Of a DNA stretch of 64,000 bases, positions 11,527 to 62,390 are shown in pieces (the first letter of the stretch is position 1; every line of letters begins with the position of its first letter). The position numbers and the translations under genes were made by a program. The notes below the pieces were generated by a model that was not told the origin of the DNA, searched no databases, and was given only the letters and a program-made list of their open reading frames with translations. Origin of the DNA: Phyllosticta citribraziliensis. Its lineage: Eukaryota. The stretch lies in contig NW_027117341.1 in NCBI RefSeq assembly GCF_038025025.1, positions 1,178,001-1,242,000 of the forward strand, read 5' to 3'.

Positions 11527-13083
11527 TTGCCTAGCTCGTGGTGGTGGTTGTGGTTGTTTTGCCTGCAGTGTCGTATGAGGAGTGGCTTGCTGGCTTTTCT
11601 TTTGCAAGGAGAAACAAACAAACAGGAAAGGTGATGGCAGTGGGGCATGGATCTTGGCAATGGGGCCATGGGTATGGGGGAATGTACTCTGTAAAGCAGA
11701 TGATGGGCGTATCGGTGCAGCGTGCGGATGACGTTGTGCTCGCGTCCAGGAGGAAGCAAGCAGAGCGAAGACTACCCACGTGCACGTAGTTGGGGAATGC
11801 CCTTCTCTGTGCTAATTTCCATCGTCACCATTGTCCTGGTTATGGCCGGTCTCATCGCTAAACAAAACCTCTCTCGCTGCCTGACTGCCGACCTACCTAC
11901 CTCGTGCCTCGCACCTCCCACCCCCCGACCTATGGTCATGTCGTTGAGCGCACGAGCACGAGAACGAGCGCAATCGGTTGAGAGAGACGAGGGAAGACGG
12001 ACATGCCTGGTGATTGGCGAATTGGACCGGAGCGCCGGTGGAGTGGCGTCTGCAGTGCGAGCTGTGGTGCGGCGGTTGTGGGAGTAAGAGGGGGGTGACT
12101 AATGCAGAAGCGTTGAGGCTGCCTCGTACCGTAGGCACGAAATGGATGCATGTGCCTGCCAGGTGAATGGATGCATCCGTGTGGGAAGAGGGGGGTTGGT
12201 TGCGGGTTGCGGCGATTCAAATGGATGTTTCTAGCGATGTTGGTTTGACTGCCTACATACATGTAGGTTGGTGCTGGGAGTAGTAGGTATGTAGCGCGCG
12301 CCGGGTTTGGCTGGAGCGGTGGGTGCAGATGGGTGGCGAGAAACATGCTGTTTGCAGCAGCCAGGACTCGCCGCCCGCGCGCCCGCCCGCCGTTTTCCGT
12401 CGTGTTTCCTGGCTCGCGTCAAGCGTTTCGCGCCGTCGAAATTTCCCGACGCCCTGGGGTAGTACCTAGCTCTTCACCAGCAGTGGCACAAGAACGACAA
12501 CGAGGATCGAACGAAGACTCGACTGGTCAATTGATTCGCCCCGCGGTCGTCGTGAAGGAATGAGGAGGATTGGGCGCGTGGGCCCTCGAGCCAAGGGCGG
12601 CGTGCTGTCAGTGGCTGATGGCGAACTACATGTACTTGGCCCGCATGTAACTGGAGGTGGTGGTGATGGCGGTGGGTGGCACAAGTACCTGACAAAGTGC
12701 GGGGGCGGCTTGGGCTGTTGGCTGACAGAGCGGAGCAGATGGCAAAGTGGAAGAATGCCGTGTTCCTTGTGTGTGTGTGTGTGTGCATGTGAGTCGTCAG
12801 CTTGTTGCCTTGTTGCGTGAGGTGGTTCATGCGAGGTCGGGGCCGGGGCCTGTGAGGTGAGAGAGCGGGCCTCCATGTGGAGGACGTGGGTCCCCGCGTT
12901 ACGAGGCTGTCTGTTCTTGCGACGACAGGCGTGACGTGACGGCTTGACGATGGAGGAGAAGCCGGACAAAGGCAATGAGGCGCAATGGGAATGGCCATGG
13001 CCATGGCCATGGGGAGCTTGGGTTCCTTGTGGGAGCTGGAGCTTGGAGCTGGCTGAGGTGGCACCTTGATGAGCCTCAGCAGC

Positions 13084-13123
13084 ACCATCACCATCACCAT
13101 CATCATCATCATCATCACCACCA
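13084..13123. repeat. (CAC/CAT)n microsatellite
   Basis: Read directly; it produces a spurious poly-His ORF. Confidence 0.85.
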
Positions 13124-13424
13124 GATCAGGATTTTTTGCATTGCCTCTGGGACCCGCCCGCCAATTCGACGCTCTAGAGTCCCGTCGTCTCGCCCTCCTG
13201 TCTTCGTCACCCCGCCCGCTTCGTGCTAGCCAACCATCATCCACCATGGCCGACAACCACAGCTTTGTCACGCGCCTCCGCCATGGCGTACTCCAGTCTT
13301 CCTCCAGTCCTTTCCCTTCCCCTCTTCCCATCTTCCATCTTCCCTCTTCCCTCGTCCTCCCTCTCCCTCCCTCCTCCCTCCTCTACATCTCCCCTCCGCA
13401 ATTGACTCGTCCTTCTAAGCAAAA

Positions 13425-42468: not shown

Positions 42469-43221
42469 GGACCATGGCCTTGCTTTGCTGTCCTTGTGTG
42501 TTGCCCGCCTTTCTTATATCTTGTATTCCACTATATACCCTTATCCTCTTGTTGCATGGCCCTTCCCTTCCGTCAATGTCCGAAGCTCGTCGGTCGATCA
42601 TGGGTTGCGCATATACGTCGCTTGCTGTTGACTTGGCGGGAGCTGAAGTGTCTGTAAGGCCCCAAACTCGAGCCCAGCAAGAACGGCTGGTATACCGACC
42701 TTGTAGCCAACCTATTGTGCGAGTCATTTGAGCTTCTCTCTTGTGCTTTTCTTCTTTATTGTTTGGTTCGAAATCGGATCGCGCGTCTTCTTGCCTCATC
42801 GAAGATGGGGTTCGGGCTTGGCTGGAGCTGCTCAACACCAAGTCAGTCACCTGCGAATAGAGGAGTCTCTCGAGCTTTCTTACCGTCCGGGAGCAATCAA
42901 TGGTTGAAGTGTGCTTGCAAGGCAATGAGCCTGTATAGTTTGTGCAGCACTGCCGGCGAGAAAGAGCTGGCGCTCTGCCCTGGAGTGCCCAGGCGGTTGG
43001 CTCGCAGCGCCCACGCAGCGCCCACGCAGGCGCTTCGGTTGCCCACCGCGTGCCTCCCCTCCGGCTCCCACTCCGCACCGAGGCGGCCTGTGCGCTCGTC
43101 CAAAATAAAACGCGACCACAACCCCGACTCCTCCTCCTCTCCTCTTCACCGACTTCGATCGACTGAACGAACGCCAGCATTGCCCACCGCTAGCAACCGT
43201 TCCTCCATCGAAACCACCACC

Positions 43222-45819
43222 ATGTCCACCGAGACCCCCCTTCCCACGCTGCAGTGGGTCACCTACCTTCTTCTCCTCGCCCTCACCTCCTCTGGGTGCG
43301 GCTGGGTGGTCCTGTCCACGACCCTCGGCCTCATTCGTAGCCCGACGAAGCCTTTCTCCTTCGTCACCATCCTCGGTCCCCTGTTCTCCCCCGGTTTCCT
43401 GTTCTCCCTCGGTGTCTTCTCCAAGCTCGCCTATGACCTCGGCATGGCTTTGGCTTTGTTTTTGCTCCCTCTGGTTCTTGCCCTGCTCGTCGCCCGGGGT
43501 TTCTGCGTCGCCTTCTGGCTTGACTGCAGATTCCCCTTCCGGTTCTCGCCCACCTTCGACGACTCTGCCGCCACCCAGATAAAGGACTTGCGCAATGAGA
43601 CCAGTACTCTTCGCAAGTACTTTAACGAGTACGTCGCCATGCTCGCCAACAAGGTCTGCACCATGGGTCTCGAGCTCCACGCCAAGGAGGTCGCCTTCGA
43701 CCGGTTCCGCCGCGCCAGCACGAAGACCGTCGCCGCCCTCAAGAAGGAGCTCTCCGACGCTCGCAAGCTCGCCAAGGCCGAGAAGCATCGCGCCATCGAA
43801 GCCAGGAAGCGTTACGCTGACTGGAAGGAGATGGAACTCTCGGGCTTGGAGGACGAGCTCGACAAGTACAGGCGTTCCCTGGAAGCTCTTCTTGAAGGTC
43901 GCCCCATGGACGAGGAAATTCTCGGCCGGATCAGTGACAAGTTCTTGTTCGGTGACCGCCTTCGCCTCATGGACTTGACCGACCGCCAGAAGAAGGATAT
44001 CGGCGCCCTTCGGACCCAAATCGACGGCCTCCAGAGGCAACTCGCGGATGCCGCCGTCACCGAGAAGGTTGTCGCCCTGGAACGTTCCCGCCAGCTCGAA
44101 GGCAAGATCACGGATCTCCAGCAGAAGATCCGCCAACTCGAGCACGCCAAGGACGTCTCCGCCGCCGAAATCTCTTTCCTCTCTCGCCAAGTGGCCGCCC
44201 AGGGTACCTTGTCCGACCAGTCTGCTTCCGATTGGGAGTTGCAGTTCGCTGCTGTCGACCACCAACGGAAGCTCGCGGAGTCCAACTCGAGGGATCTCGA
44301 CATCAAGCTGCAGTCTCTTCGTCGCGAGATGGAGAAGGCTGCCGAGTTCCAAGAGGAGGAGCTCTCCCGCGCCCAGGACAAGGCATACCGGTACTCGCAG
44401 GCTATCGACAGGGCTGAGGCCGACCGCGACCAGGCCAAGCAACTCGTCAAGTCTGCCGACCAGGAACGTCGTGCCGCTGTCGCCAGTGCCGACACTCTTC
44501 AGTCCGAGGTCAACTCGTTGACCGAGGAGCTCAAGATCCTCCGCGCCGGCTGCTGCTTGTGCATCTGTCCCTGTTGCCCGGACGGCTGCTCTGCCCACCG
44601 TTTCGGCGCCGCCTCGCCCTCGCCCGTCCCCGTCACCGTCCGTTCGCCCTCGCTCGCCTCGCTCCGCCAGGAGCTTGATCGCCTTCGCTCCGAGAACGAG
44701 ACCCTTCGCCAGCCCGTCCGTTCGCCCTCGCCCTCGCCCGAGCTCGCCTCGCTCCGTCAGGAGCTTGATCGCCTTCGCTCCGAGAACGAGACCCTTCGCC
44801 AGCCCGTCCGTTCGCCCTCGCCCTCGCCCGAGCTCGCCTCGCTCCGTCAGGAGCTTGATCGCCTTCGCTCCGAGAACGAGACCCTCCGTCAGCCTGTCCC
44901 TTCGTCCTCGCCGTCTCCCGAACTCGCCTCGCTGCACCAGGAGCTCACCCGTCTTCGTGGTGAGAACCAGCAGCTGAGCCATGTTCACGGCGAGAACTTG
45001 AGCCTCCGCCAGCAAATCGCTGCCCTCTCGCAAGAGAACACGACGGCTCGGGGGCTCATGGGTCAGGCTGAAGGTCAATGGGCCAGCCTGCAGGACACCA
45101 CTCGCCGCCTGGAAAGTGAGCTTGCCACATCTCGTGAGCAACTCGGCACTGCCCGCCGTGAGCTTGCCGCCTCTCGCGAGGAGGCTACAGCTGCTCGCCA
45201 GGAGGCCAGTTCCGTCGCCGCTCGTGCGGATTTCTTGGCCGAGCAACTCCGCCGCCAGGTCGCTCGCTCCACCGCCTCTCCCGTTGCTGCTCCCTCCGCT
45301 CCCCCGGCCGCCCCTCTCGCTGTCCCTCCCACCGACCAGATGCTCCTTGCCCAGCAGCAGGTCGACCAGTTGACGAGGCGCGCTGAGCAAGCGGAGCAGA
45401 AGCTCCAGGAGACTCTCGACCGCCTGGATGCCGCCAATGCCACCTTGGAGACCTACCGCAACACCCCGGGTGCTCTCTCGTTTGAGGAGCGCAACACCTG
45501 GGCTATGGAGCGTGGTCAGCTCAGTCTTCTGCTCGCAGGTCACGACTCCGAGGTCGCCAGCCTCAAGCGCCAGCTTGAAGATCTCGCCCACCAGCTTCAA
45601 GACAACGAGGCTGAATTGGAGGAGGCCGAAGTCAATCTGGCGAAGCTGGAGGTGGACCACAAGGCCGAGATCGACAACCTGGAAGACATCATCCAGGACT
45701 TCCAGGAGAGAATCGATGACCTCGGCAGCATCGACGACGAGATTGAACAGCTCCGAGAAGAGAACGACGAGCTCAAGGAGGAGTTGAAGGAGTGTTACGA
45801 AACCTTAGGGTTTCAATAA
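43222..45819 (+). CDS. Orphan intronless protein (865 aa): N-terminal hydrophobic/TM segments, long coiled coils, Cys cluster, internal 30-aa repeats
   Basis: CACCATG context and strong C-ending codon bias. About 3 hydrophobic stretches in the first 100 aa, heptad-rich E/L/R/Q regions, GCCLCICPCCPDGC, and an acidic C-terminal coil. The frame is open upstream to 42715. Confidence 0.85.
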   Translation: MSTETPLPTLQWVTYLLLLALTSSGCGWVVLSTTLGLIRSPTKPFSFVTILGPLFSPGFLFSLGVFSKLAYDLGMALALFLLPLVLALLVARGFCVAFWLDCRFPFRFSPTFDDSAATQIKDLRNETSTLRKYFNEYVAMLANKVCTMGLELHAKEVAFDRFRRASTKTVAALKKELSDARKLAKAEKHRAIEARKRYADWKEMELSGLEDELDKYRRSLEALLEGRPMDEEILGRISDKFLFGDRLRLMDLTDRQKKDIGALRTQIDGLQRQLADAAVTEKVVALERSRQLEGKITDLQQKIRQLEHAKDVSAAEISFLSRQVAAQGTLSDQSASDWELQFAAVDHQRKLAESNSRDLDIKLQSLRREMEKAAEFQEEELSRAQDKAYRYSQAIDRAEADRDQAKQLVKSADQERRAAVASADTLQSEVNSLTEELKILRAGCCLCICPCCPDGCSAHRFGAASPSPVPVTVRSPSLASLRQELDRLRSENETLRQPVRSPSPSPELASLRQELDRLRSENETLRQPVRSPSPSPELASLRQELDRLRSENETLRQPVPSSSPSPELASLHQELTRLRGENQQLSHVHGENLSLRQQIAALSQENTTARGLMGQAEGQWASLQDTTRRLESELATSREQLGTARRELAASREEATAARQEASSVAARADFLAEQLRRQVARSTASPVAAPSAPPAAPLAVPPTDQMLLAQQQVDQLTRRAEQAEQKLQETLDRLDAANATLETYRNTPGALSFEERNTWAMERGQLSLLLAGHDSEVASLKRQLEDLAHQLQDNEAELEEAEVNLAKLEVDHKAEIDNLEDIIQDFQERIDDLGSIDDEIEQLREENDELKEELKECYETLGFQ
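44638..44970 (+). repeat. 90-bp in-frame tandem repeat (PVRSPSPSPELASLRQELDRLRSENETLRQ), about 4 copies
   Basis: Near-identical copies start at 44713 and 44803, with a shorter copy before and a diverged copy after. Confidence 0.92.
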
Positions 45820-46036
45820 GCATTTCGCCATCTTCTCTCCCTCTCGTTTCTTCTTGGTTTGTTCTTCTGCCTGGTGCGTCGCAAGGTCGGACGCGACGTA
45901 AAACACGCTTGAGGACCGTCTTTCGACCGGCTTTTTCAGACATTCGGATCGACATTCTTGGATGACCCCAGCATTGCTCCCCTCTAGTGGTCTTCGGACC
46001 GCTGCCCTTCATTCTGGGTTGAGCTTCTTGCCGGCA

Positions 46037-46349
46037 GCAATCCCGTAGCACCCTTTGGGACCCCCGGATTGCATTTCCCTTCCTTGAACGACATCCAGTC
46101 ACGCCCCACGGATCCTCCTTGAGCAGCCTTCATGGCTTGCTTCCGTCCCCGCGAGTGGACGAGCACATCTCGCCTTGCAGTCCGTAGCACCTTTTGGGAC
46201 CCTCGACTGCAAGTTTCCAGCAGCCTATGACACGGCTATAAACTGCCCCAGCCCCAGACGGCCAGCCTTGGCACCGTTCGGTCCTTTGTGCAAGTGGACC
46301 AGCACATCTTGCACCGCAGTCCGTAGCACCCTCCGGGACCCTCGACTGC
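46037..46349 (+). repeat. Three about 139-bp-spaced modules: stem-CGTAGCA-CCY..GGG-ACCCYC-stem
   Basis: CGTAGCA at 46044, 46183 and 46322. Closing stems GCAATCC/GGATTGC, CTTGCAGTC/GACTGCAAG and GCAGTC/GACTGC. Confidence 0.85.
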
Positions 46350-46434
46350 AGAATTCGACAAAGCGCAAGGCAGAAGTTCCGGGGCGTGGTGAGTGGACAC
46401 ACCGCGTCTTTGGCCCCTTCAACGCTCTTTTCCA

Positions 46435-46705
46435 AGTTGTCTTGCGTCAGATAACAAAGCTTCTGAGGGACACTTGCCATCGTTCCTTCAATCCATGGAC
46501 AGGGCACTCGACGGCTTTGGCGGAGCTGTCTTGAGCCTGATGCGGGGTCACTTGTTCCCTGGAGGGCTTGAAAAACCGCGTCCACTGGAGGAACTGGTGA
46601 GTTGTCTTGCGTCAGATAGTGGCGTTACTGAGGGACACTTGATCCAGATTCAGTCCATGAACAAGGCGAACGACAAGCTTTGGCGGAGCTTGTTTTGTAG
46701 CTGAG
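46435..46705 (+). repeat. Two diverged about 105-bp direct repeats, 165 bp apart
   Basis: agttgtcttgcgtcagata..ctgagggacacttg..tccatg..gctttggcggagct at 46435 and 46600. Confidence 0.85.
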
Positions 46706-48282
46706 AATCGAGCAGTCAGTCGGTACCTCGAGGCCTTCCTAAACCATTCTCACGTTCATTGGACCGGACAATCAGCCCCCCGCGGATGGAGCAGCACATT
46801 CCGCACCTTCGGACTTTAGAAATCCGGACTAAACCCCAAAAAAAGATTGAAAGAACGGCAATAACCCACAAAAAACCTTTCCTGTACGGTGCTTTTACTT
46901 CATTCTGTACCTACCAGCGACCTTCTTTCGACTCCACTCAAACCGCAAACCAAAAACCACAAAAACACTTGCAAAGAACGACAAAATTACCCCAAAAACA
47001 TTCTGCGTCTGGCGACCGCTTTACCTGTTGTTCGATAGCACCTGCAGCCATCCTCGTCTCTCTTTTACCGAGGAGCATCGGAACCCGACGAAACAAGACC
47101 TCCCATCAAACAGTGTTCTGGAATCTTGCAAACGCCGCTCTCTACCTTCTGACGAGATCGTGGCAATTCCACTCACTTGGGTCTGTTTCTCGTGGCTTAC
47201 CTCTTCCGACACGGCTGTCACCTTTCACGTTCGTGGTTTACCTTCTGGCAAGCTTTAATACTCTTCCGAGCTTGCGCCTTGCGGTTTTACGACTTTCCTG
47301 CTGCTTTACGCCTGTACCTTTACGACATGGGCTCGCTGGCTGTACTTCTACGGCTTCTACCATACCGTCGACTGCTCCCTTTCTTCGCACCGACGACTCG
47401 GCCGTTCATGCTGGCAACTCCAGGGCTTTCGGGTTACGCCCTTTCTGCACCACGGAACGCTTTCCTCCCTCTGCATCCAGTGTTCCTGTGGCGATTTACA
47501 CGCGCTACGAACCGACACCCGGGCCGCTCTACGCTTGGGAATCTCTTGTGGCTGTTGATTGACATCTTCTTCGACGGCTCTCCCTCGCTGTATGAGCTCC
47601 CACGGTTCTTCATGGCCAATTTACATCCATCGATGGCCCTACTTGCGCCCTTTGTCGGCCTTTTGCTGTGGCAGATTCACAGCAGACGGACTCGTCTCCT
47701 CTCATTCGACGCATACGTCTTGCGAGCTTTCCTGGGTTTTGCTCGCATCCCCCGTTGTTCAATCACTCTTCGAACGACGATAAATCTACGCTTGGTTGTT
47801 GCTCCTACGGTCGTCACATCTGCTCTTCCTTCCCACAATTCTCACATTTCCGAAGACGAAGACGACCTCGACTAGCTCTCTTCTACGTCGACAGGAGCAC
47901 CCATTCTTCCGACGACTTGGTCCATTTTCCCTCGTTGTCTTGCCTGCTTTCTCTTCTCGGCAGGCTCCGAAATTTGACCGTGCTGCTGGTTTCTGGGTTT
48001 CCAGCACCGTGGTTGCGCTGTTCACAGCGTCTGGCTTACTCGTCCTGCTACTCTCCACGGCAGTTGACTTGTGAGCTTCCCTGGGCATTCAAATCTTCTG
48101 GTCGTCTCCCCATTCATCGACGACCGGAGCTCCTCACTCTTCCGGCTTGCTTTCCTTTTCTTGTCAAGCGGGATTCACTCACGACGTGCTGCCTTCTGGG
48201 CTGTACTTGCGGCACGTCATGTCTTCGCGCTCCATCTACCGCGCAAGACTCGTCTGATTACACTCCTCTCATCAGGCGATCA

Positions 48283-49979
48283 CGACCGGTTCAGTCTGGC
48301 TTCTATTCACTGGACTGGTCGCTACTCCAATCTACGACGACCTACACGGGCTTCTTGGTCGTCGGGGCTGCTGCTCGTTTCCTTCAACTTGGCTTTACAC
48401 GCCTGGCATGCAGTGGCTCCTCAACTCTTCTGGGCACTCTCCGCGGCTTTGTCGACGATTCCCTACCTCTTCTACGTCGACGAAGCTGCTACTCCTGCTG
48501 ACCGGTCCATTCAACCTTGCTTTTGCTTCTTTGGACTGGTCGGCTTCACAAATCAGCGACGATCCGGGTGGCTCCCTGGTTGTCTGCTTTGTTTCTGGCC
48601 ACTGCGAGCTTCTGCTTTCACAAACTACCTGGCTGGCTCTCTTTCTCTGGACTTGCTTGCGGCGGGCTCTCCTCTACATGGCGGCTCTGTCGAATCATCT
48701 TCTTCTGCACCCTTTCGACGGAGCTGCCCCTCTGGGCATTCTTTTCGGCTGACCGGTCCATCCAATCTCACTGACTGGTCGGCTTCTCAAATCTGCGACA
48801 AACGGGGTGGCTCCCTGGTTGTCTACTCCACTTCTACCACCGCTCGCTCCTCTCAATGGCTGACAATCTCTTCGGCAAAGCCTGCGGTGGAATCCTCCTT
48901 CAAATCTGGCTCCTCTGGAGCTTTGCGGCTCTGTCAAATCACCTCTTCTCTACGTTTTCGACGGGGCTGCACTCTGGGCATTCTCTTCGGCTGACCGGTC
49001 CATCCAATCTCATTGACTGGTCGGCTACTCAACAATTTGCGACAAACGGGGTGGCTCCCTGATTCTCTACTCCACTTCCAGCCACCGCGCGCTTCTCTAA
49101 ATGGCTGATCTCCTCGGCAACGCCTGCGGTGGCATCGGGCTCCTTCGGGGCCTTGCGGCTCTGTCGAATCATCTTCTCTACCCTTTCGACGGGGCTGCAC
49201 TCTGGGCATTCTCTTCGGCTGATCGGTCCATCCAATCTCACTGACTGGTCGGCTACTCAACAATCTACGACAAACGGGGTGGCTCCCTGATTGTCTACTC
49301 CAATTCCAGCCACCGCGCGCTTCTCTAAATGGCTGATCTCCTCGGCAACGCCTGCGGTGGCATCCTCCTCAACTTCGGGCTCCTTTGGGGACTTGCTGCT
49401 CTGTCAAATCACCTTCTTTTCTACGCTTTTGACAGGGCTGCACTCGGGCATCTCTCTTGCTGACCGGTCCATCAAATCTCACTGTGCTTGCTACATTTTG
49501 GACTGGTCGGCCTTCCACATTGACGACGACCTGGGTGGGCTCCCGGGGCGTCTGCTTCACTTTCGGCCGCTGCTTGCTTTCTACCTCAAAAACACTTGGC
49601 TGATCACCCCTTTGGCCTTGCTTGCAGCGGCCTTCCTCATCAAACGAATGTGTCACTCTGGGCAATTTCCAGCTTACCGGTCCTTCAACTTTCGCTGCTG
49701 CTACAACTTGGACTGGTTGGCTTTACACATCGAAGAAGACCTGGGTGGGCTCCCTTGTCATCTACGCTTTGGCCGCTGCTCGCTTGCAACTTCAACAACA
49801 CGTGGCTGTCATCTCTTTGGCATTGCTTGCGGCGGCCCTTACCCATCAAGCGAATGCTCCTTGGCGGCTTTGTCGATTCCCTCACTTCATCGACGAGGCT
49901 GCTTCACCTGATGCACACCTCGGGGCATTCACAGTGATCGGTTCAGCAAACTGCTGGCGCTACACTTTGAACCGATCAC
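48283..49979 (+). repeat. Tandem array of about 8 diverged 212-263-bp units, each with conserved hairpins
   Basis: Hairpin GCTGACCGGTC..GACTGGTCGGC or variants at 48283, 48497, 48747, 48989, 49217, 49459, 49671 and 49934. Confidence 0.9.
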
Positions 49980-51821
49980 GACACAACTTTACAACGACTT
50001 GGCGGGGCGGCTTCCCTACATCTTCAAGTAAGCCATCAATCACTCTGGGCATACGGCTTACTCGATTCGCAACTTGGATTGTCTCCCAAGCTGCCAAGAG
50101 CTCTCTCCTTTCGAACACCCACCAAACAAAGAGTGTTCTTCCCCTTCTCTGTGGAGCTCAGCCGCTCAGCCAAGTCGACCACCTTTCATTCCACTTCAGC
50201 AACTCGGTCACTCGACCAAGTTGTTTCCCTTTTGCTTTTTTGTTTTGCTTTTTCGTTTTTGCTTTCTCTCACAACCCTGGATGAACCCTGGATGGATGCC
50301 GGCTCCTTACCACCACAACTGCTGCTTTCCGAGGACGACAATGGCTTCTCCCAATGACCGCCAACAAAACAACCCGTCCTTGGAACCGGAGCCTAGCAAA
50401 TCTCAGCCGGACTGTAGACTTCTCTGGCAATATGATCCGCCAGATCAGGTTGGTTACTTTCTGCTTCAACATTTTCTCTTCAAACACTCTCGAAGCCTTG
50501 CCGGCCTAACCACTACTGCTACTGCTACTGCCGCTGCTACTACGAAAGATCCAACCAAGCCGAAGCTACAACCACTACCGGCTGGCCCATTATCAAACAA
50601 CTTTCCGCGGTCTTCCAAGACTTCGACTCCAAACAACCGGGCTGGCCGGCCGGCACAAACATCTCCCACTCCACGCGCTCCTCCGCGTCAAGAACACCCC
50701 TCCTCGCTCAAGCTTGTCATCCTCCGCTGTAGATTCTCCACATTCAATCGTTCGGCCGTCAAAAGGACAAGGTGCAAAAGCGCCTACTTCAATCTTCCCC
50801 GAACAGAGTCTCTTCCAGCACGACGAGCAGCGAACCCCCTCCGCGACGTGGTCAAAAGCTCCAACTACAAACAACCGAGCTAGCCGGCACAAACATCCAT
50901 CAATCCATTCATCCATCCATCCATCCATCCAGGGTTCAACGCAAAGCTGGCAGCCTCCAGGCCAGCATACGAGATGGTCAACCCTCAAAAGTAAGCTTCG
51001 CCCTGGAAAAGCTCATCGTCTTGAACCTTGCTAACCACTTGTACGACAGAACAAACTACGCGACCATCTCACGAACAACCCATACAGGGAGTGTTCACGG
51101 CCACTACAAAAGACCCTCAAAGCTTCGCGCTCTCGGCTTTTGCATCCGCCAAATACCAACATGGTGGCAAGCTGGTCGCCCCCAAAACGTAAGTCCTACG
51201 GTCCCTACGCCCCCAATTCGAAGTCGCATGCTAACACATTACACCACAGAATCATTAACACAACACCTTCACCAACAACAGCCATACTCAGCCAAAGCAG
51301 CCCTTCCACACACCACGGTCCACCAGTCCTTCTCGCACCCCCACCCGCCGACGCGGCGGCTTAGCAGCCTAGGGACGTCTGAGGGTTACCTCCACCCGAA
51401 AGGCAAGCTCGCCAATGCTGACGCGGGAGGGTGTGGGCGGGGCTGCGTGGCCGTGATGAGCAGGCGGCTTTCGCGCGCTTCGTGTTGCGGCTTGAGGTGA
51501 CCCTCGTCGTGCTCGGTCAAAGCGTTGCGTGCCGTCTGCTGCTGTGGCGGGGTTTGTGTATGGGCGCGGTGGGCTGGCGTTGGGTGCGAGGCCGGGGCGA
51601 CCACGGACGGCGCGGGACGTTGGACAATGGCATCGTTCACAGACACTTGAACACAAACAAAACGAGCCTTGTTCGACGGCGCCAGTCCACTCCACAAACA
51701 TCAAAAACATCAAAAAAGAAAGAAAAAACAAAGCCAAAAAGGCAAAGAAAAAACTCTCAACCCACGTCAAACACCAACACCAACATCACAAGCACACAAA
51801 CACAAACCGCACGCGCGCAAA

Positions 51822-51975
51822 ACCCAACTACATCACCTGAACGCAGAGTCAGTGATGGCCGGACCGAACGACGGCTCCGCCTTTGCGCGCGCGCACGCAA
51901 GACCCCAACTACATCATCGGGCGCAGAACCGGTGATGGACGGACCGAACGACGGTACCGCTTCTTGCGTGCACGC
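51822..51975 (+). repeat. Two 80-bp tandem direct repeats with a covarying hairpin
   Basis: cccaactacatca..gcaga..gtgatgg(c/a)cggaccgaacgacgg at about 51823 and 51904. Confidence 0.85.
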
Positions 51976-52074
51976 GGGCTGTGCTTGCTGATTGACTGAC
52001 TGGGTTGAGTGGGAAATTTGAGGAGGATAGTGGAGGGGGAGGGGCGGGGGAAGGAGAGGGGGATTTGGTGTCCG

Positions 52075-52395
52075 AAACTCTACATTCTACACTCTACACT
52101 ACACTCTACACTCGACTCTACACACTCGACTCAAACGACCACTCTACCAACAACGACAATTCAACCGACTCTACCACCCGACACAACCAACCAACCGACC
52201 GTCGCGACTCGCTGTCTCCGCCAACAACCAACTCTCTCAAATCGAATCAACTCAACCCACCATGTCGACAATCCAACACTCCAACACTGCAACACTCCAA
52301 CAATCCAACAATCCAATAACCCGACACCCCGACACTCCGACACAGACAGCGAGTCCGACGACACCAAACCAAACAAACAAAAAACAAAAAATAGA
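52075..52395 (+). repeat. A/C-rich low-complexity tract (ACTCTAC and CCAACA repeats)
   Basis: Read directly; very G-poor on the + strand. Confidence 0.8.
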
Positions 52396-53291
52396 AGGGC
52401 AGCCGGCCCCAGCGACGGGACCGAAATTCAGGCACAAAGCTTCAGCTTCAGCTTCAACTTCAACTTGACACGGAAGCGGTGGAGGGCATGACGGGCACGG
52501 CAGGGCAAGGCAGAATAAGGCAGGATAAGGCAGGATGAGCCTGACGGGCTGGAGCGAGACACGAGTGGCATCGAGGAGCATTTGATGAGAATGTCCCGGT
52601 GCGGAGCGGTTCAGGGTGAAGGGGCAGGACAAGCCTGGATGATTCAAGCGCGAGAGCGGAGTGGAGTTGAATGAAGAATTAACGACGCGTTTCTACCATT
52701 TCTGGTGCTGCTAGAGCTGTGAGAAGGGTACTTGGTGCTGTGTAGAAGAAATTCGCGATCTGCCTCCCATCCTTTTCTGCCACCATTGCACGTGACGAGT
52801 CCCTGAGAGTATCTTGACGGACAACTTTTACTTCAAGGCCGGACCATTTGGATGTATGAGAATCATGGCACTGGAGGTTTGGAAAGTATCATTGACCGTG
52901 ACGTGATTGAAGCTAAGTTTGATCAACGTGAAGCAAAATTGACCACATTTCCTAACTTCGTCCCTTTCCACGGCGTCACCACAGCGTTTGACTACCACCC
53001 TCTGAAAGCAAGATGTAACCTTAGATCTGACTCCCTTGTATGCGTAATTTGTTGGAATGCGCGTAGAAACCCGTCAAACACCGGTTGCGATTTGTCATGA
53101 ATGTCAAAGCAATCACACGAGCCAGTCATCACGATTCGATCGTGATGTGAACTGGGTACAGAGCAAGAAAGAAAACAGGAATAAGTCTTTTGAGGCGAAG
53201 ACTGATCTGCAGTCAATTGGACTTGTGATCGGAGGTCTGTCGAAGTCATCAGCGGAGAACATATGAAAAGCGCACGCTGGCTTACAAAGGT

Positions 53292-54374
53292 TTAGTCCTT
53301 GGGCTCCGTCTTTATTGAGACTTCCGCATTTTGTCTCTTGTCGCTGGGGTGAGAATGTGGCTGCTGATCTTCAGCATCTGTAAGGGAACTTGGGCCGTGC
53401 TTGAAGGACTCTAAAGTGCCATGGACTTTCGTAAATTCGTACAGTGAGAAGTATCCAGTGGGTTGGTTGAGCGGTTGCTCGGAATCATCGCATGTGTTGT
53501 TGCTTCCACGATTGCCATTGCCATTGTAGTCATCTTTGATTTGATAGTGACTCTCCTCCCGCCGACTTGTGAATGTGTTCTTTCTCTTGTGTCCAACATG
53601 TAGCTCGCTCTCTTCAGTAGACTTGTCGTGCTGCACTCCTCTTTGGAAAGCAGACGACTGTGCTTGTTTGAGCTCGGATACCTTGGATTCAAGCGTCTGT
53701 ATCCTCTGATCTTTTCCCTCCAGCGAGGCCTCGTGTGCGAGATTCTTCCGTTGCACAAAGGCCTCAAACCGGTTGTCCTTTTCGCGGAGAGCACTTTCGG
53801 ATGTTTCCTGTGCAGTCCGAAGGTCTTTGATGACTGCCGACGTTGAGCTGAGAGAGTTCTCGTAATTTTTGACTTGGTGTTGTAGCGCTTGTATTGCTTG
53901 GTCTTTCCGTTGGATGTTGTCATGAAGCTGCTTTGTTGCGGAGTCCAGCGTAACGATTGTAGGCATTACAGCGTAGATGGCGCTGCCAACACTTGGTCCC
54001 GTCAGGGGCACCAACGACGAGTCAATCCGAAAATACCCCAATCTCTCAAGCTCAGTCAAAAGTCCATCATAAATGACCGCAAAAGCCTCTTCGCGCCCTA
54101 GATTTCTAAAATCCGGCAATGAAAAGCGACCAGGCTCCAGAAGCTTGCGGAAGAAGCGATCTGCGGCGCCCGTGTTGTGGAAAGCTTTGGGGCGTTGAGC
54201 TACCGGGAGTTGCGAGTCGATCGTGGCTAGAGCCCGGCCTCTGTAGGCTTTTTTGACGCCTGTGCGTGTTAGGGGAGGTATGGGTGAAGGCTGGAGGAGA
54301 AGGGTACCTTGGAAGAAGCTGATGCTGGCGTTTCCTGAGAAGGAAGCCGGGACGTAGCCGTCGCGAATTGCCAT
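53292..54374 (-). CDS. Hypothetical coiled-coil protein
   Basis: Long ORF from MAIRDGYVP with a probable 48-nt in-frame intron (GTACCC..CTAAC..CAG). Coiled-coil segment KQLHDNIQRKDQAIQALQ..KDQRIQTLESKVSELKQ. True start uncertain. Confidence 0.65.
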   Translation of the reverse strand: MAIRDGYVPASFSGNASISFFQGTLLLQPSPIPPLTRTGVKKAYRGRALATIDSQLPVAQRPKAFHNTGAADRFFRKLLEPGRFSLPDFRNLGREEAFAVIYDGLLTELERLGYFRIDSSLVPLTGPSVGSAIYAVMPTIVTLDSATKQLHDNIQRKDQAIQALQHQVKNYENSLSSTSAVIKDLRTAQETSESALREKDNRFEAFVQRKNLAHEASLEGKDQRIQTLESKVSELKQAQSSAFQRGVQHDKSTEESELHVGHKRKNTFTSRREESHYQIKDDYNGNGNRGSNNTCDDSEQPLNQPTGYFSLYEFTKVHGTLESFKHGPSSLTDAEDQQPHSHPSDKRQNAEVSIKTEPKD

Positions 54375-54389
54375 GATGCAGTGGCCTTG

Positions 54390-54662
54390 CAGCAGACCGA
54401 GCGGGCAAGAGACCCGAAGGCGAGAGACGTGCACGTCGTGCCAGGCTTCAGAGCGGGAAATTGGAGCAATAATCGTGCACGACAGGCCTCAGAGCGAGAG
54501 ACTTGAGCGAAAGACCTGAGGGGGACGTGGCAAGAAATGTTCGCAGCGGCCTTGAGGCAGACTGAGCGGGCAAGAGACCTGAAGGCGAGAGACGTGCGCG
54601 TCGTGCCAGGCCTCAGAGCAGGAGAATTGAGAGGCAGCCTTGAGGGAGACGTGCAAGAGATG
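54390..54662. repeat. Diverged direct repeats about 164 bp apart
   Basis: gcagac(c/t)gagcgggcaagagacc(c/t)gaaggcgagagacgtgc(a/g)cgtcgtgccaggc at about 54393 and 54557, plus gaggg(g/a)gacgtg..caaga..atgt at about 54518 and 54642. Confidence 0.85.
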
Positions 54663-55098
54663 TCCCCGAGAGGAGTGGGTGAGAAGAAGGAACCCAGCAC
54701 TTGGGTGGGTGGGTCGATGACCACCTGCCAGTTGGAAAGAAGGAAGGCACCTCACCCAGCAGTCGCCACTGCCTCCAACCAGCAACACCACCAAAGCCGC
54801 AGCTCTCACATCACGAACCCTCCTCATCGTCTTCCACTCGCTAGGTACATAGTCTTGAATACGCACAGTTTTACTCCGCACGTCTGCTACCAGTACTCGG
54901 CATCTCACCCCTCCACAATTTCTACCGCTCGTTTTATACCGCAGCACGGTTGCGCCGCTGCGTGGCTTCTGGATCCGAATTACAGCAGAAAAGAAGACCG
55001 GTAAAGGCAGAGACCGTCGAGTCGTGAGCCCCAGCATTCGAGTCACTGAAGAGCATCTCACCGACGACTTACCTCCAGCACTCCCTCTCCAGACCACC

Positions 55099-55765
55099 AT
55101 GGCAGACTCCCGGTCAGACTCAAACGAAACCCGCGTCACCCACGCGTGGGCGGCAAACATGTCACCGCACGTCTCGCCTTCCACAGCGCAGAGCGCTGCC
55201 AACCCGGCGCCTGCAAGCTCGACTACGCACGGCAGCACCACTGCTGCAGCTGGAAGCGCTGCTGCGCAAACCGCAGACACCCCAGAGGGGGCCACGGGCC
55301 TCGTAGTCCACATGACAGTCGAAACAGTCACCTCGACCACCGCCGCTGCAGAAGAACCAGCACCACCGTCCAGCAGTGCGAGCCCACCGGGTAGGAGATT
55401 CCTCGCCGACCGCCGGCGCGTCTACAGAGTCAGCCAGCCCCATTGCACACCGCCCATCAAGCAACCCACCCAACTGACAGCACACGCAGCTCCACGAGCT
55501 CCCCGACGGCCGCCAAAGACTGACGCCTCGCGACGGCGTCGTGCCCGAGTGCGGCGACCCGGCGCTCGTCTACAACGAGGTGCTGCACATCCACTGGGGG
55601 GAGGAGGAGCTGCGCGTACACGTGCACGTGCGGAAGGACGGACGCATGGTGATTTTGCGCGCCCTCACGCCCGACGAGCAGGTCGTCTGGGAGGACATTT
55701 TGCGAGCGAATCAGGGCATTGAGCCTCGTCTCATCGCCATGGGGGGAGCGAGGTTGGAGCCATAG
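55099..55765 (+). CDS. Hypothetical protein, 2 exons
   Basis: CACCATG start and Ser/Thr/Ala-rich exon 1. A phase-0 intron GTCAGC..CTGAC..CAG (about 55429-55489) joins RRVYR to LHELPDGRQRL..EVLHIHWGEEELRVHVHVRKDGRMVIL..RLEP*. Confidence 0.65.
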
Positions 55766-60710: not shown

Positions 60711-62390
60711 CTACCGCAGCTTATACACACACGGCTTCAACAACGCCGCCTCATCAACCTCCTCCTCTCCCTCCTCCTCGACAAACTTCTTGGCCTTCGC
60801 CCTGCCACCTCCCATCCCCCCTCCTCCCGCCTTGCCCCCTTCCGCCTCCCTGCCACTCCGCACATTCTTCCCCTTGGTCGGCGCCGCCGCCTTGACGAAC
60901 TGCATGCGCACAAACATCTTGTTGCGCAGGTCGACGGGTGCCGCGCTCTCGGCATCCAGCACGAAGCCGCGCGCGCGCAGCGCGGCGACGAAGGCCGACA
61001 CGTCCGTCTCGTTGCCGCGGGAAGGGACGGCGCCGTCGATCTCGACGGCCAGCGCCTCATCGTCTGCGGCCGCGGCGTCGGCGGCGTCTCTGTTGGCCTT
61101 GTTGTGCTTTGCGGCGGCGCTCTTCTGGCGGCGGCCGACGCTGTGGTCGACGACCTTGTTCTGCTTCGCGTCTTTGGCGCCGGCGCCGGCGACGCGGCCA
61201 AAGCGGCTCTTGATCTCGGCGACCCACAGCTCGCCCTTCCAGCGCAGCACGCGGTACGCCTCGTCGACGAAGTCGGGCCAGTTGGTGCCCATGAGCGCGA
61301 GGCAGAAGATGGCCACGTCGACGGCGCCGTCGCGCAGCGGCAGCGCGCTGATGTCGGCTTTGGTGATCAGCGGCGACGGCGCCGCCAGGTCGAAGCTGTG
61401 GATGGCCAGTTTGAGTTTGCGCAGCGAGGGTTGCAGCGAGGACGAGAGCGTCGCGTCGCCGCAGCCCAGGTCGGCGATGGTGCAGACGTGCGAGCGGAAG
61501 TCGCGCGGGAGCGGTTTGAGGGCCTTTGACGCCGTGCTATCGTCCTCGCCCTCTTTGCTTTGCAGCGCCTTCCTGCGCCCATCCCCGCGCACCGCGCCGC
61601 GCCGCTGCACCAGCTGCACAAACGTGTCGACGGGGTTCTCGGGCCACACGGCGACCTGCTGGCGGAAGCCGGCGTGGTACTCGTTGAAGATCTGCGGGTC
61701 GTCTTCGATCAGCGCCAGCGAGTGCGCCGACGGCGTCGTGTACAGCGTTTGGTTCAGGTGCCGGAAGCGCGCTGACGCGAGCTTCTCGCGCATTTTGGCT
61801 TGCAGGGGCGTGAGCTTCGCATTGTTGGTGGGGGGGAGAGGAGAGGGCGCGGCGACGGCGGCGGCGGTGGTGGTATTGGAAGTGGTGTTGGGCTGCTGCT
61901 TGGTGTCCTTCTTCTTTTGCTTCTTGCCCTTGGCCGGCGTCTCCTGCTTGGACGCATCGGGACCTTTCGTCGCATCGCCCTCCTCCTCCTCCTCCTTCTT
62001 AGAACCCGCGGCATCCTCCTCGCGCCTCTGCTTCTTGCTCTTCGGCGGCTTGCCGCTCTCCTTCTCCTGCTCCTTCTCCAGCTTCTGCTTTGCCTGCATC
62101 TCCAGCTTCTGCGCCGCCTTGTACTCCTGCTTCTGGCTCCTCATCTTCTTCTCTGCGCCCTCCTTGTCCTTGCTCTTCGACGTGCCCTCCACCACCTCCG
62201 CCCACATATCGGCGACATTCTCGCTCGTCACGTTGGCCCCTTTTTCCTTGCCCTCATCTTTGCCATCATCTTTGTCGCCGCCCTTCTTGCCCTGCCTCTT
62301 CCTCTTTTTCGAGTTGGCGGCAGCGGAGGCCGCCGCCTCGGATTCCGTCTTCAGCGGCGCCGAGAGGTTCCACCCGGGGACGGCGAACAT
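60711..62390 (-). CDS. RRP8: 25S rRNA adenine-N1 methyltransferase Rrp8
   Basis: MFAVPGW start, LTPLQAKMREKLASARFRHLNQTLYT, EYHAGFRQQVAVWPENPVD, IADLGCGDA, FCLALMGTNW, LWVAEIKSRF, LKPCVYKLR. Confidence 0.96.
   Translation of the reverse strand: MFAVPGWNLSAPLKTESEAAASAAANSKKRKRQGKKGGDKDDGKDEGKEKGANVTSENVADMWAEVVEGTSKSKDKEGAEKKMRSQKQEYKAAQKLEMQAKQKLEKEQEKESGKPPKSKKQRREEDAAGSKKEEEEEGDATKGPDASKQETPAKGKKQKKKDTKQQPNTTSNTTTAAAVAAPSPLPPTNNAKLTPLQAKMREKLASARFRHLNQTLYTTPSAHSLALIEDDPQIFNEYHAGFRQQVAVWPENPVDTFVQLVQRRGAVRGDGRRKALQSKEGEDDSTASKALKPLPRDFRSHVCTIADLGCGDATLSSSLQPSLRKLKLAIHSFDLAAPSPLITKADISALPLRDGAVDVAIFCLALMGTNWPDFVDEAYRVLRWKGELWVAEIKSRFGRVAGAGAKDAKQNKVVDHSVGRRQKSAAAKHNKANRDAADAAAADDEALAVEIDGAVPSRGNETDVSAFVAALRARGFVLDAESAAPVDLRNKMFVRMQFVKAAAPTKGKNVRSGREAEGGKAGGGGMGGGRAKAKKFVEEEGEEEVDEAALLKPCVYKLR

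Follow-up and report, generated by a model that had tools for sequence, protein, structure and literature searches.

Introduction

To our knowledge, few structured non-coding RNAs are known from filamentous fungi. Repeat-built lncRNAs (long non-coding RNAs) are represented in animals by NORAD and by the 280-nt repeats of hsr-omega, whose units of about 300 nt carry repeated protein-binding features and are defined mainly by linear motifs. The A-repeat of the mammalian lncRNA Xist consists of units of tens of nucleotides, each with one or two small hairpins. Passages of a report on this A-repeat describe tandem short structured units with pyrimidine-rich spacers, which are thought to form a multivalent protein platform (PMC6917512). 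For Pezizomycotina, comparative screens have yielded conserved non-coding hairpin structures supported by covariation (PMC5640933; PMC8216456). In the searched passages of these two reports, the motifs are single elements, not arrays, and the words "tandem" and "repeat" occur 0 times.

Here we analyzed a stretch of 64,000 nucleotides of Phyllosticta citribraziliensis DNA (the window; all positions are counted from its first letter), which harbors a tandem array of hairpin modules. The array resembles the Xist A-repeat, as described in those passages, in its tandem structured units and pyrimidine-rich spacers. However, its units are ~240 nt long with four long hairpins, it has no sequence relation to Xist and belongs to another kingdom, and its binding of protein is a prediction. 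With NORAD and hsr-omega it shares a unit size of hundreds of nucleotides and a tandem or near-tandem arrangement; in contrast to these, the array is conserved in its stems, shows no homology to them, and is only presumed to be transcribed. Unlike the motifs described in the passages of the fungal screens (PMC5640933; PMC8216456), it is an array of hairpin modules, and it matches no Rfam family. Minisatellites and promoter repeats are similar in their head-to-tail order, in their young central units and in the probable change of copy number between relatives, but strand-specific fold stability and compensated stem substitutions set the array apart from ordinary minisatellites. A literature search found no comparable fungal array. 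Its hairpins remain paired on a single strand as the intervening sequence drifts, which suggests a structured RNA of a kind so far undescribed.

Results

A head-to-tail array of eight units

Tandem Repeats Finder, a repeat search, nhmmer and a covariance model concurred in detecting a head-to-tail array on the plus strand. Tandem Repeats Finder reported a period of 228 bp at 48681-49484, and the repeat search reported families at 206-256 bp spacing. A profile built from six units was used for an nhmmer search over the 64-kb window. Seven plus-strand copies were obtained at E <= 5.4e-14 and an eighth, at 49935-50016, at E 0.071; there were 0 matches outside 48098-50036 (nine rows at E <= 10). 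The covariance model, run with filters off, returned 42 rows at E <= 10. Eight of these are plus-strand units spanning 48279-50054 with scores of 16.2-239.5 bits (Table 1), and 22 lie on the minus strand with a maximum of 10.8 bits, all but one being single array hairpins read backwards. The initial annotation of this DNA had claimed a tandem array of about eight modules at 48283-49979 with units of 212-263 bp. Both statements were borne out, with unit lengths of 211-264 nt in the covariance model and an additional partial copy of 123 nt.

Units are 55-92% identical to one another in pairwise comparison. Within the central group, u2-u4, identity is 87-92%, and these units, judged from their sequences, appear to be the youngest.

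Each unit carries four hairpins and a linker

Folding of single units, and RNAalifold run with a plain MAFFT alignment, revealed a unit of four independent hairpins in the order B, D, C, A, followed by the linker CTCTGGGCA; all four helices were recovered by RNAalifold. Pyrimidine-rich single strands, together with this linker, connect the hairpins. Hairpin B has 11-13 bp, hairpin C 8-10 bp plus an inner 4-bp stem, and hairpin A 13-15 bp. Hairpin D is small (about 9 bp) and bears a GGGTGGCTCCC element at its tip. A small extra hairpin, E, is confined to u2-u4 and has a UUCG loop in u3. Two units depart from this plan: hairpin A is missing from u5, where it is deleted in alignment A2, and u0 differs in order, with the linker (48430) located 5' of hairpin A.

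The initial annotation had listed stems of two long hairpins per unit, A and B. All of the quoted stems were recovered by single-unit folding and RNAalifold; the number was too low, as hairpins C and D bring it to four, and the list of A hairpins, correct as far as it went, had missed two further copies (~48926-48969 and ~49156-49197). The loops had rightly been called variable, that of hairpin B measuring 13-27 nt. A small recurring element noted at the same time is present as GGGTGGCTCCC, but it is really the tip of helix D and not a separate element.

The linker CTCTGGGCA is conserved and single-stranded, as exemplified by plus-strand positions 48972-48980. It had been noticed before as a recurring motif, and a motif scan located exact or variant copies at nine positions. 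Even the decayed copies at the two ends still carry it (48081 and 50043). Furthermore, a self-complementary 8-mer, GACCGGTC, lies within most of the hairpin B 5' arms. Hairpin B of u7 is a perfect 12-bp inverted repeat (49934-49945 / 49968-49979) in which the self-complementarity of the 8-mer is gone and the complementarity of arm to arm is retained. Three of its pairs are changed on both sides, in agreement with the earlier description of this stem (49934-49979) as re-sequenced yet perfect.

Table 1. Positions of the array units, their linkers and neighboring features in the 64-kb window
Feature	Position	Strand	Details
Coiled-coil ORF, left flank	42658-45819	+	ORF list/Pfam
Structured pyrimidine-rich domain (array and degenerate flanks with further hairpins)	~47750-50200	+	sliding 200-nt z-scores; C+T 0.617
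Candidate ninth unit, decayed, lying upstream	48030-48235	+	8.6 bits, E 0.012; hairpins on folding; CTGGGCA linker at 48081
Variant linkers	starts 48081, 48430, 49443, 49919	+	motif scan, alignments
u0, 212 nt	48279-48490	+	142.3 bits; B 48283-48321, A ~48444-48488, linker 48430
u1, 250 nt	48493-48742	+	207.1 bits; B 48497-48544, D 48558-48584, C 48598-48666, A 48682-48726
Exact CTCTGGGCA linker copies	starts 48730, 48972, 49200, 49656, 50043	+	motif scan
u2, 241 nt	48744-48984	+	239.5 bits; B 48748-48783, D 48797-48823, C 48837-48891, A 48926-48969
u3, 227 nt	48986-49212	+	221 bits; B 48990-49025, D 49041-49067, C 49081-49133, E 49137-49153, A 49154-49199
u4, 242 nt	49214-49455	+	225.8 bits; B 49218-49253, D 49269-49295, C 49309-49361, A 49396-49440
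u5, 211 nt	49457-49667	+	166.7 bits; B 49459-49511, D 49525-49552, C 49566-49631; hairpin A deleted
u6, 264 nt	49668-49931	+	193.6 bits; B 49672-49721 (one U-U mismatch), D 49735-49762, C 49772-49836, A 49865-49901
u7, partial, 123 nt	49932-50054	+	16.2 bits, E 3.7e-5; B 49934-49979, linker 50043
T-rich tract between array and downstream unit	50224-50270	+	sequence, short tandem repeats
Putative small spliced orphan unit	50341 (or 50281)-51364	+	intron-pattern scan, frames read by eye
Two canonical intron-like elements	50991-51049, 51189-51249	+	intron-pattern scan
Second structure, two tandem ~83-nt copies, each an outer stem enclosing two hairpins	51812-51975	+	z-scores, alignment A5
Coiled-coil ORF, right flank	53292-55421	-	ORF list/Pfam

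Stems are conserved and substitutions are compensated

Sequence constraint was examined in the old-lineage units u0, u1, u3, u5 and u6. Identity amounted to 80.7% in paired columns, 57.5% in hairpin loops and 56.0% in other unpaired columns. Cells with a gap against a base made up 14% of paired columns as compared to 33-35% elsewhere; the stems are avoided by indels.

Pair counts were taken from three tool alignments. Alignment A2 is the MAFFT alignment, which was fitted to no structure; the 5' arm of hairpin B is misaligned in its u0 row, and the paired counts from A2 are therefore slightly lowered. Alignment A4 corrects this arm for helix B only. Alignment A3 was produced with the covariance model; u5 is absent from it, and one of its rows is spurious (61320-61397, minus strand, 9.2 bits); because it is fitted to the structure, it was given less weight than A2.

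In A2, 94.7% of 320 cells pair as compared to 91.2±0.6% in shuffles (0 of 500 reach this value), and sliding the partner by 1-3 columns left only 29-49% of cells paired. Nine of 49 pairs are changed on both sides and still paired, against 3.9±1.2 after shuffling (0 of 500) and 0-2 with slid partners; the corresponding figure for A3 is 11 of 49 against 4.3±1.4. G-U occupies 44 cells and A-C five, and one position of hairpin B is G-U in seven of the eight units and G-C in the remaining one. Broken cells in A2 number 17 of 320, including a U-U in hairpin B of u6 and a U-U in hairpin A of u4; A-C mismatches occur in hairpin A of u2 and in hairpin C of u1. A count of further standard pair types was not significant in any of the alignments, with 19 against 18.9 in A2 (reached by 327 of 500 shuffles), 25 against 22.3 in A3 (30 of 500) and 10 against 8.9 in A4 (178 of 500).

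Hairpin B was also evaluated by itself with u7 included (A4). Of 105 cells, 92.4% are paired, a value reached by three of 500 shuffles, and four pairs are changed on both sides as compared to 1.7±1.0 expected (22 of 500); three of the four come from u7. The covariation thus supports hairpin B alone modestly. All of this covariation was obtained from paralogous units of one locus and compared with a shuffle control that ignores relatedness, and the number of independent lineages is small, about 4-5, because u2-u4 are 87-92% alike.

Substitutions between units are therefore not random with respect to pairing, as judged from the pair counts in A2, A3 and A4 and from the identity of the stems. The structural part of the initial annotation, which had proposed covarying hairpins in tandem modules with variable loops, is hereby supported and extended.

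Fold stability is specific for the plus strand

Compared with shuffled sequences, u3 (48972-49199) gave a z-score of -4.96 on the plus strand and -0.83 on the minus strand, and u5 and u6 together (49443-49918) gave -5.13 and -1.59, respectively. The surrounding region was scanned in 16 overlapping 200-nt windows with starts from 47751 to 50001. On the plus strand, 14 of the 16 reached z <= -2 (range -1.3 to -7.25). The same windows ranged from +1.1 to -3.0 on the minus strand, where four of the 16 reached -2. In the background region 1-33200, z <= -3 was found in one of 168 strand-windows (84 windows). Hence, fold stability is specific for the plus strand.

The base content of the array region is C 0.33 and G 0.23; since C exceeds G, a simple C-to-T excess on the plus strand is argued against as the source of the G-U pairs. 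The excess of G-U pairs and the missing fold signal on the minus strand suggest that pairing is RNA-like and acts at the level of RNA rather than DNA.

Repeats located upstream of the array, at 46030-46360, showed no significant structure on either strand (z -0.89 and -1.06).

The array has no coding potential and matches no known RNA family

Stop codons are present in all six frames within 48280-50036, with 6-28 per frame, and the unit lengths are not multiples of three apart, leaving no shared reading frame. Codon log-odds between the flanking genes reached at most 9.7 bits as compared to 9.7-23.1 bits in a known coding frame. Pfam searches with 10 and then eight frames around the locus returned no matches in the non-coding stretch save weak rows at chance level. 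A 308-aa plus-strand frame over the array (48068-48994) had 0 homologues at E <= 0.001 among proteins of 169-539 aa, of which the 8000 candidates with most shared words were compared. A protein-coding tandem repeat was rejected on these grounds, and the stops, unit lengths and codon bias likewise leave no single conserved frame to explain the conservation, a reading that the initial annotation had named among those that would speak against structure.

A search of the 64 kb against Rfam 15, which includes ribozymes, snoRNAs, microRNAs, telomerase RNA and the U, SRP, RNase P and MRP RNAs, returned 0 matches at gathering score. At E <= 5, the region 46500-51000 yielded one row only, at chance level, namely RAGATH-32 on the minus strand, whose 17.2 bits fall short of its gathering score (41.8), and no self-cleaving ribozyme, snoRNA or microRNA family. 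Several known classes were considered and rejected. A ribozyme-bearing satellite of the hammerhead type does not fit, with no ribozyme family at E <= 5, but an unknown class of ribozyme is possible. Ascomycete telomerase RNA was rejected because the window is without an exact template motif and without an Rfam match; the template is matched with one mismatch at five places, a chance-level number (3.45 expected; five or more in 26 of 100 shuffles). The stems of 11-15 bp are shorter than the ~20 bp required for duplexes of ~19-25 nt and do not agree with a cluster of Dicer-type, microRNA-like hairpin precursors. Among the features of repeat-built structured lncRNAs, tandem structured units, signs of selection on stems and non-coding character were found, and transcription and multivalent protein binding are predicted.

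Neighborhood of the array

The array lies in a stretch of 7.5 kb (45820-53290) between two convergent coiled-coil ORFs. A neighboring ORF was assigned by Pfam to the plasma-membrane choline transporters (PF04515, E 8.5e-99); among the long or fused forms, which were the ones searched, its best relatives are from Pezizomycotina (filamentous ascomycetes), with 72% identity to Monosporascus. The plus strand at 47000-50200 is pyrimidine-rich (C+T 0.62, A 0.16), and the GC content at the array is normal, about 55%. Tandem repeats also occur in neighboring genes and spacers of the window.

Downstream on the same strand, the array ends 100-300 nt before the putative start (50281 or 50341) of a small spliced unit. 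Judged from the sequence, the T-rich tract in between could signal the 3' end of the upstream RNA or serve the downstream promoter as a pyrimidine box. By our reading of the frames, the ORF of the small unit (50341/50281-51364) stays open across the proposed splices. Its codon signal is weak, it has no Pfam match, and the putative exon 2 has no homologue among longer proteins or in an exhaustive HMMER search of 1.84 billion representatives; it is therefore a candidate orphan gene, or else it may form part of a non-coding RNA that is spliced.

The second structure at 51812-51975 gave z -5.15 on the plus strand as compared to -1.24 on the minus strand, and paired positions differ between its two copies. 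It may belong to the same putative transcript as the array and, because of it, the array is perhaps one part of a larger plus-strand structured RNA locus.

Relatives of the locus

The contigs of run X3 (organism B) extend over the flanks and over portions of the array, and a relative therefore keeps the locus. The contigs differ from the window in 34 of 639 letters at 47268-47906, in 23 of 396 at 48193-48586 and in 36 of 672 at 49647-50318. Two joints inside the array skip from 49178 to 49458 and from 49512 to 50053; from these sequences, the arrangement of units in the relative is probably different. Contigs of runs X2 and X4, which may be RNA, overlap parts of the stretch as well and were given no weight in either direction.

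A metagenome scan for two hairpin B arms with a variable gap returned 27 loci. None of them resembles the unit profile or 45800-53300 (nhmmer, blastn), and they were therefore regarded as chance. No homologue outside the lineage was found in Rfam or by the metagenome pattern scan.

Discussion

Repeats, hairpins, fold stability on one strand, compensated substitutions and the lack of coding potential were established directly for this locus. We read the array as a plus-strand RNA domain in which four-hairpin modules follow one another in tandem and selection acts on the stems, and assign this reading a probability of a little under 0.6. A ~240-nt module would have undergone at least eight tandem duplications. 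Selection would have preserved pairing of the hairpins as RNA, in which G-U pairs are acceptable, and loops and spacers would have drifted and changed in length.

The same array could in principle have arisen as a neutral minisatellite, in which chance palindromes were amplified by unequal crossing-over and the hairpins are relics without function. The youth of u2-u4, which share 87-92% identity, the skip joints in the contigs of run X3, which fit a change in copy number, and the tandem repeats in nearby genes and spacers are all compatible with such a history. However, neutral drift should not leave stems 81% identical as compared to 56-58% elsewhere. Under neutrality, one would also not expect some 95% of cells to pair between units with 55-70% identity, 9-11 pairs to be changed on both sides where about four are expected, or G-U to occupy 44 cells against five for A-C. 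We therefore regard neutral amplification as unlikely, though as the least unlikely of the alternatives.

A function at the level of DNA was also considered, with the array lying in the promoter of the downstream plus-strand unit and acting there through activator or repressor sites, or as DNA that forms cruciforms or hairpins. Yeast promoter tandem repeats tune expression, and both the position of the array, which ends ~100-300 bp upstream of 50281/50341 with the T-rich tract in between, and the possible dimer site offered by GACCGGTC in most hairpin B 5' arms agree with such a role. On the other hand, the arms are separated by variable distances, with loops of ~13-27 nt, which misfits sites for a dimeric factor, and u7 is without the self-complementary 8-mer but keeps the complementarity of its arms. 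Moreover, a cruciform needs both strands to fold, whereas the stability of the array needs G-U pairs and is lost on the minus strand. A DNA-level role thus appears improbable, slightly more so than neutral amplification.

Furthermore, the array might be a polycistronic precursor, giving rise either to Dicer-type small RNAs or to ~240-nt monomers released at the linker. Many hairpins in tandem would suit a precursor, as would the survival of CTCTGGGCA in the decayed end copies, which a processing signal might show just as a binding signal might. Dicer products require roughly 20 bp or more of stem; the stems of the array have only 11-15 bp, which makes Dicer-type small RNAs less likely, and no ribozyme, snoRNA or microRNA family was matched at E <= 5. 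We consider a precursor of either type very unlikely.

Least credible is a remnant of a mobile element, with the array forming tandem repeats inside, for example, a non-autonomous DNA transposon or Helitron: hairpin-rich repeats occur in some mobile elements and the region is without conserved genes, but no terminal inverted repeats flank it (the sole inverted pair of at least 18 nt in 44000-55000 is the local one at 51885/51962), no other copy of the array family exists elsewhere in the 64-kb window, Pfam searches of the frames revealed no transposase-like ORF at the locus, and the GC content, about 55%, is normal.

If the array is a domain of selected RNA hairpins, as we prefer to read it, two settings are conceivable, because the domain ends 100-300 nt before the spliced unit on the same strand: it would form part of a non-coding RNA of its own, located upstream, or of a leader of the spliced unit, which would then be structured and very long. 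As a leader, with eight upstream ATGs and 1.7-2.5 kb of stable hairpins, it would make an odd 5' UTR. We infer from sequence and predicted structure that the array is transcribed, that its RNA binds protein and that it might exert a regulatory effect. The most likely mode of action would be multivalent binding, in which the repeated hairpins and the linker are offered to one RNA-binding protein, so that the RNA would serve as a scaffold or a sponge. The initial annotation had suggested either such a platform, which is still a reasonable proposal, or precursors of processed small RNAs, of which the Dicer kind is less likely. Alternatively, upstream transcription or structure could possibly act in cis on the downstream unit.

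A more far-reaching picture can be drawn tentatively, and we regard it as doubtful in its entirety: an undescribed fungal non-coding RNA built as an array of a ~240-nt four-hairpin module and grown by duplication under selection for pairing, in which the linker CTCTGGGCA would be a docking site for protein or a cleavage site for monomers. This array, the second duplicated structure (51812-51975) and, between the two, the spliced orphan unit would jointly form a multi-kilobase structured RNA locus between convergent conserved genes.

Should the hairpins be relics, the locus would call for caution about covariation signals within tandem repeats. If a fungal RNA domain built from repeats is indeed present, it would provide a tractable model for the origin of lncRNA scaffolds by duplication, and also for the relation between hairpin valency and function. 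Its paralogous units constitute a built-in record of covariation, and the locus is small enough for deletion, shortening and compensatory mutation.

Tandem duplications and fold stability around the array

Fold stability was expressed as a z-score against shuffled sequences, more negative values denoting more stable folds. The tandem pair downstream of the hairpin array formed a stable fold on the + strand only (z = −5.15 vs −1.24 on the − strand), in which each copy contains an outer stem around two hairpins; paired positions of this structure differ between the copies. The 139-bp and 165-bp repeat families share the intergenic spacer with the array, and small hairpins are present in both. 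The fold z-score of the 139-bp array (46030-46360) was not significant on either the + or the − strand, and the 165-bp repeats, which were covered by the sliding scan, scored −1.93 (+) and −0.95 (−). Tandem duplications are generally abundant around the array locus; those within the flanking coiled-coil ORFs have periods divisible by three.

Features in and around the spacer
Feature	Window position	Strand	Remarks
Repeats in flanking coiled-coil ORF, 90-bp period, four copies	44554-44981	+	
Repeat family, 139-bp period, three copies	46043-46350	+	
Repeat family, 165-bp period, two copies	46435-46690	+	
T-rich tract with short 7-19-bp repeats	50224-50270	+	Between array and downstream unit
Putative small spliced unit	50341-51364	+	Introns 50991-51049, 51189-51249
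Tandem pair, ~83 nt per copy	51812-51975	+	Fold z-scores, alignment of copies
Repeats in other flanking coiled-coil ORF, 165-bp period, two copies	54378-54631		

In a background scan of 200-nt windows over positions 1-33200 on both strands, 12801-13000 (+) was the sole unusually stable fold (z = −5.8); re-scoring with 200 shuffles gave −3.2. Long − strand ORFs at 12466-13382 overlap this window.

Putative transcription unit downstream of the array

The T-rich tract might act as a terminator-like element, or it might be the pyrimidine box of a promoter. In the putative spliced unit, an intron-pattern scan revealed canonical donor, branch point and acceptor signals for both introns, and frames read by eye were uninterrupted over both proposed splices. 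The codon signal was weak, no Pfam domain was detected in the frames searched around the locus, and an exhaustive HMMER search of 1.84 billion representatives returned no homologue of putative exon 2. The unit has two readings, as an orphan gene or as a lncRNA that is spliced.
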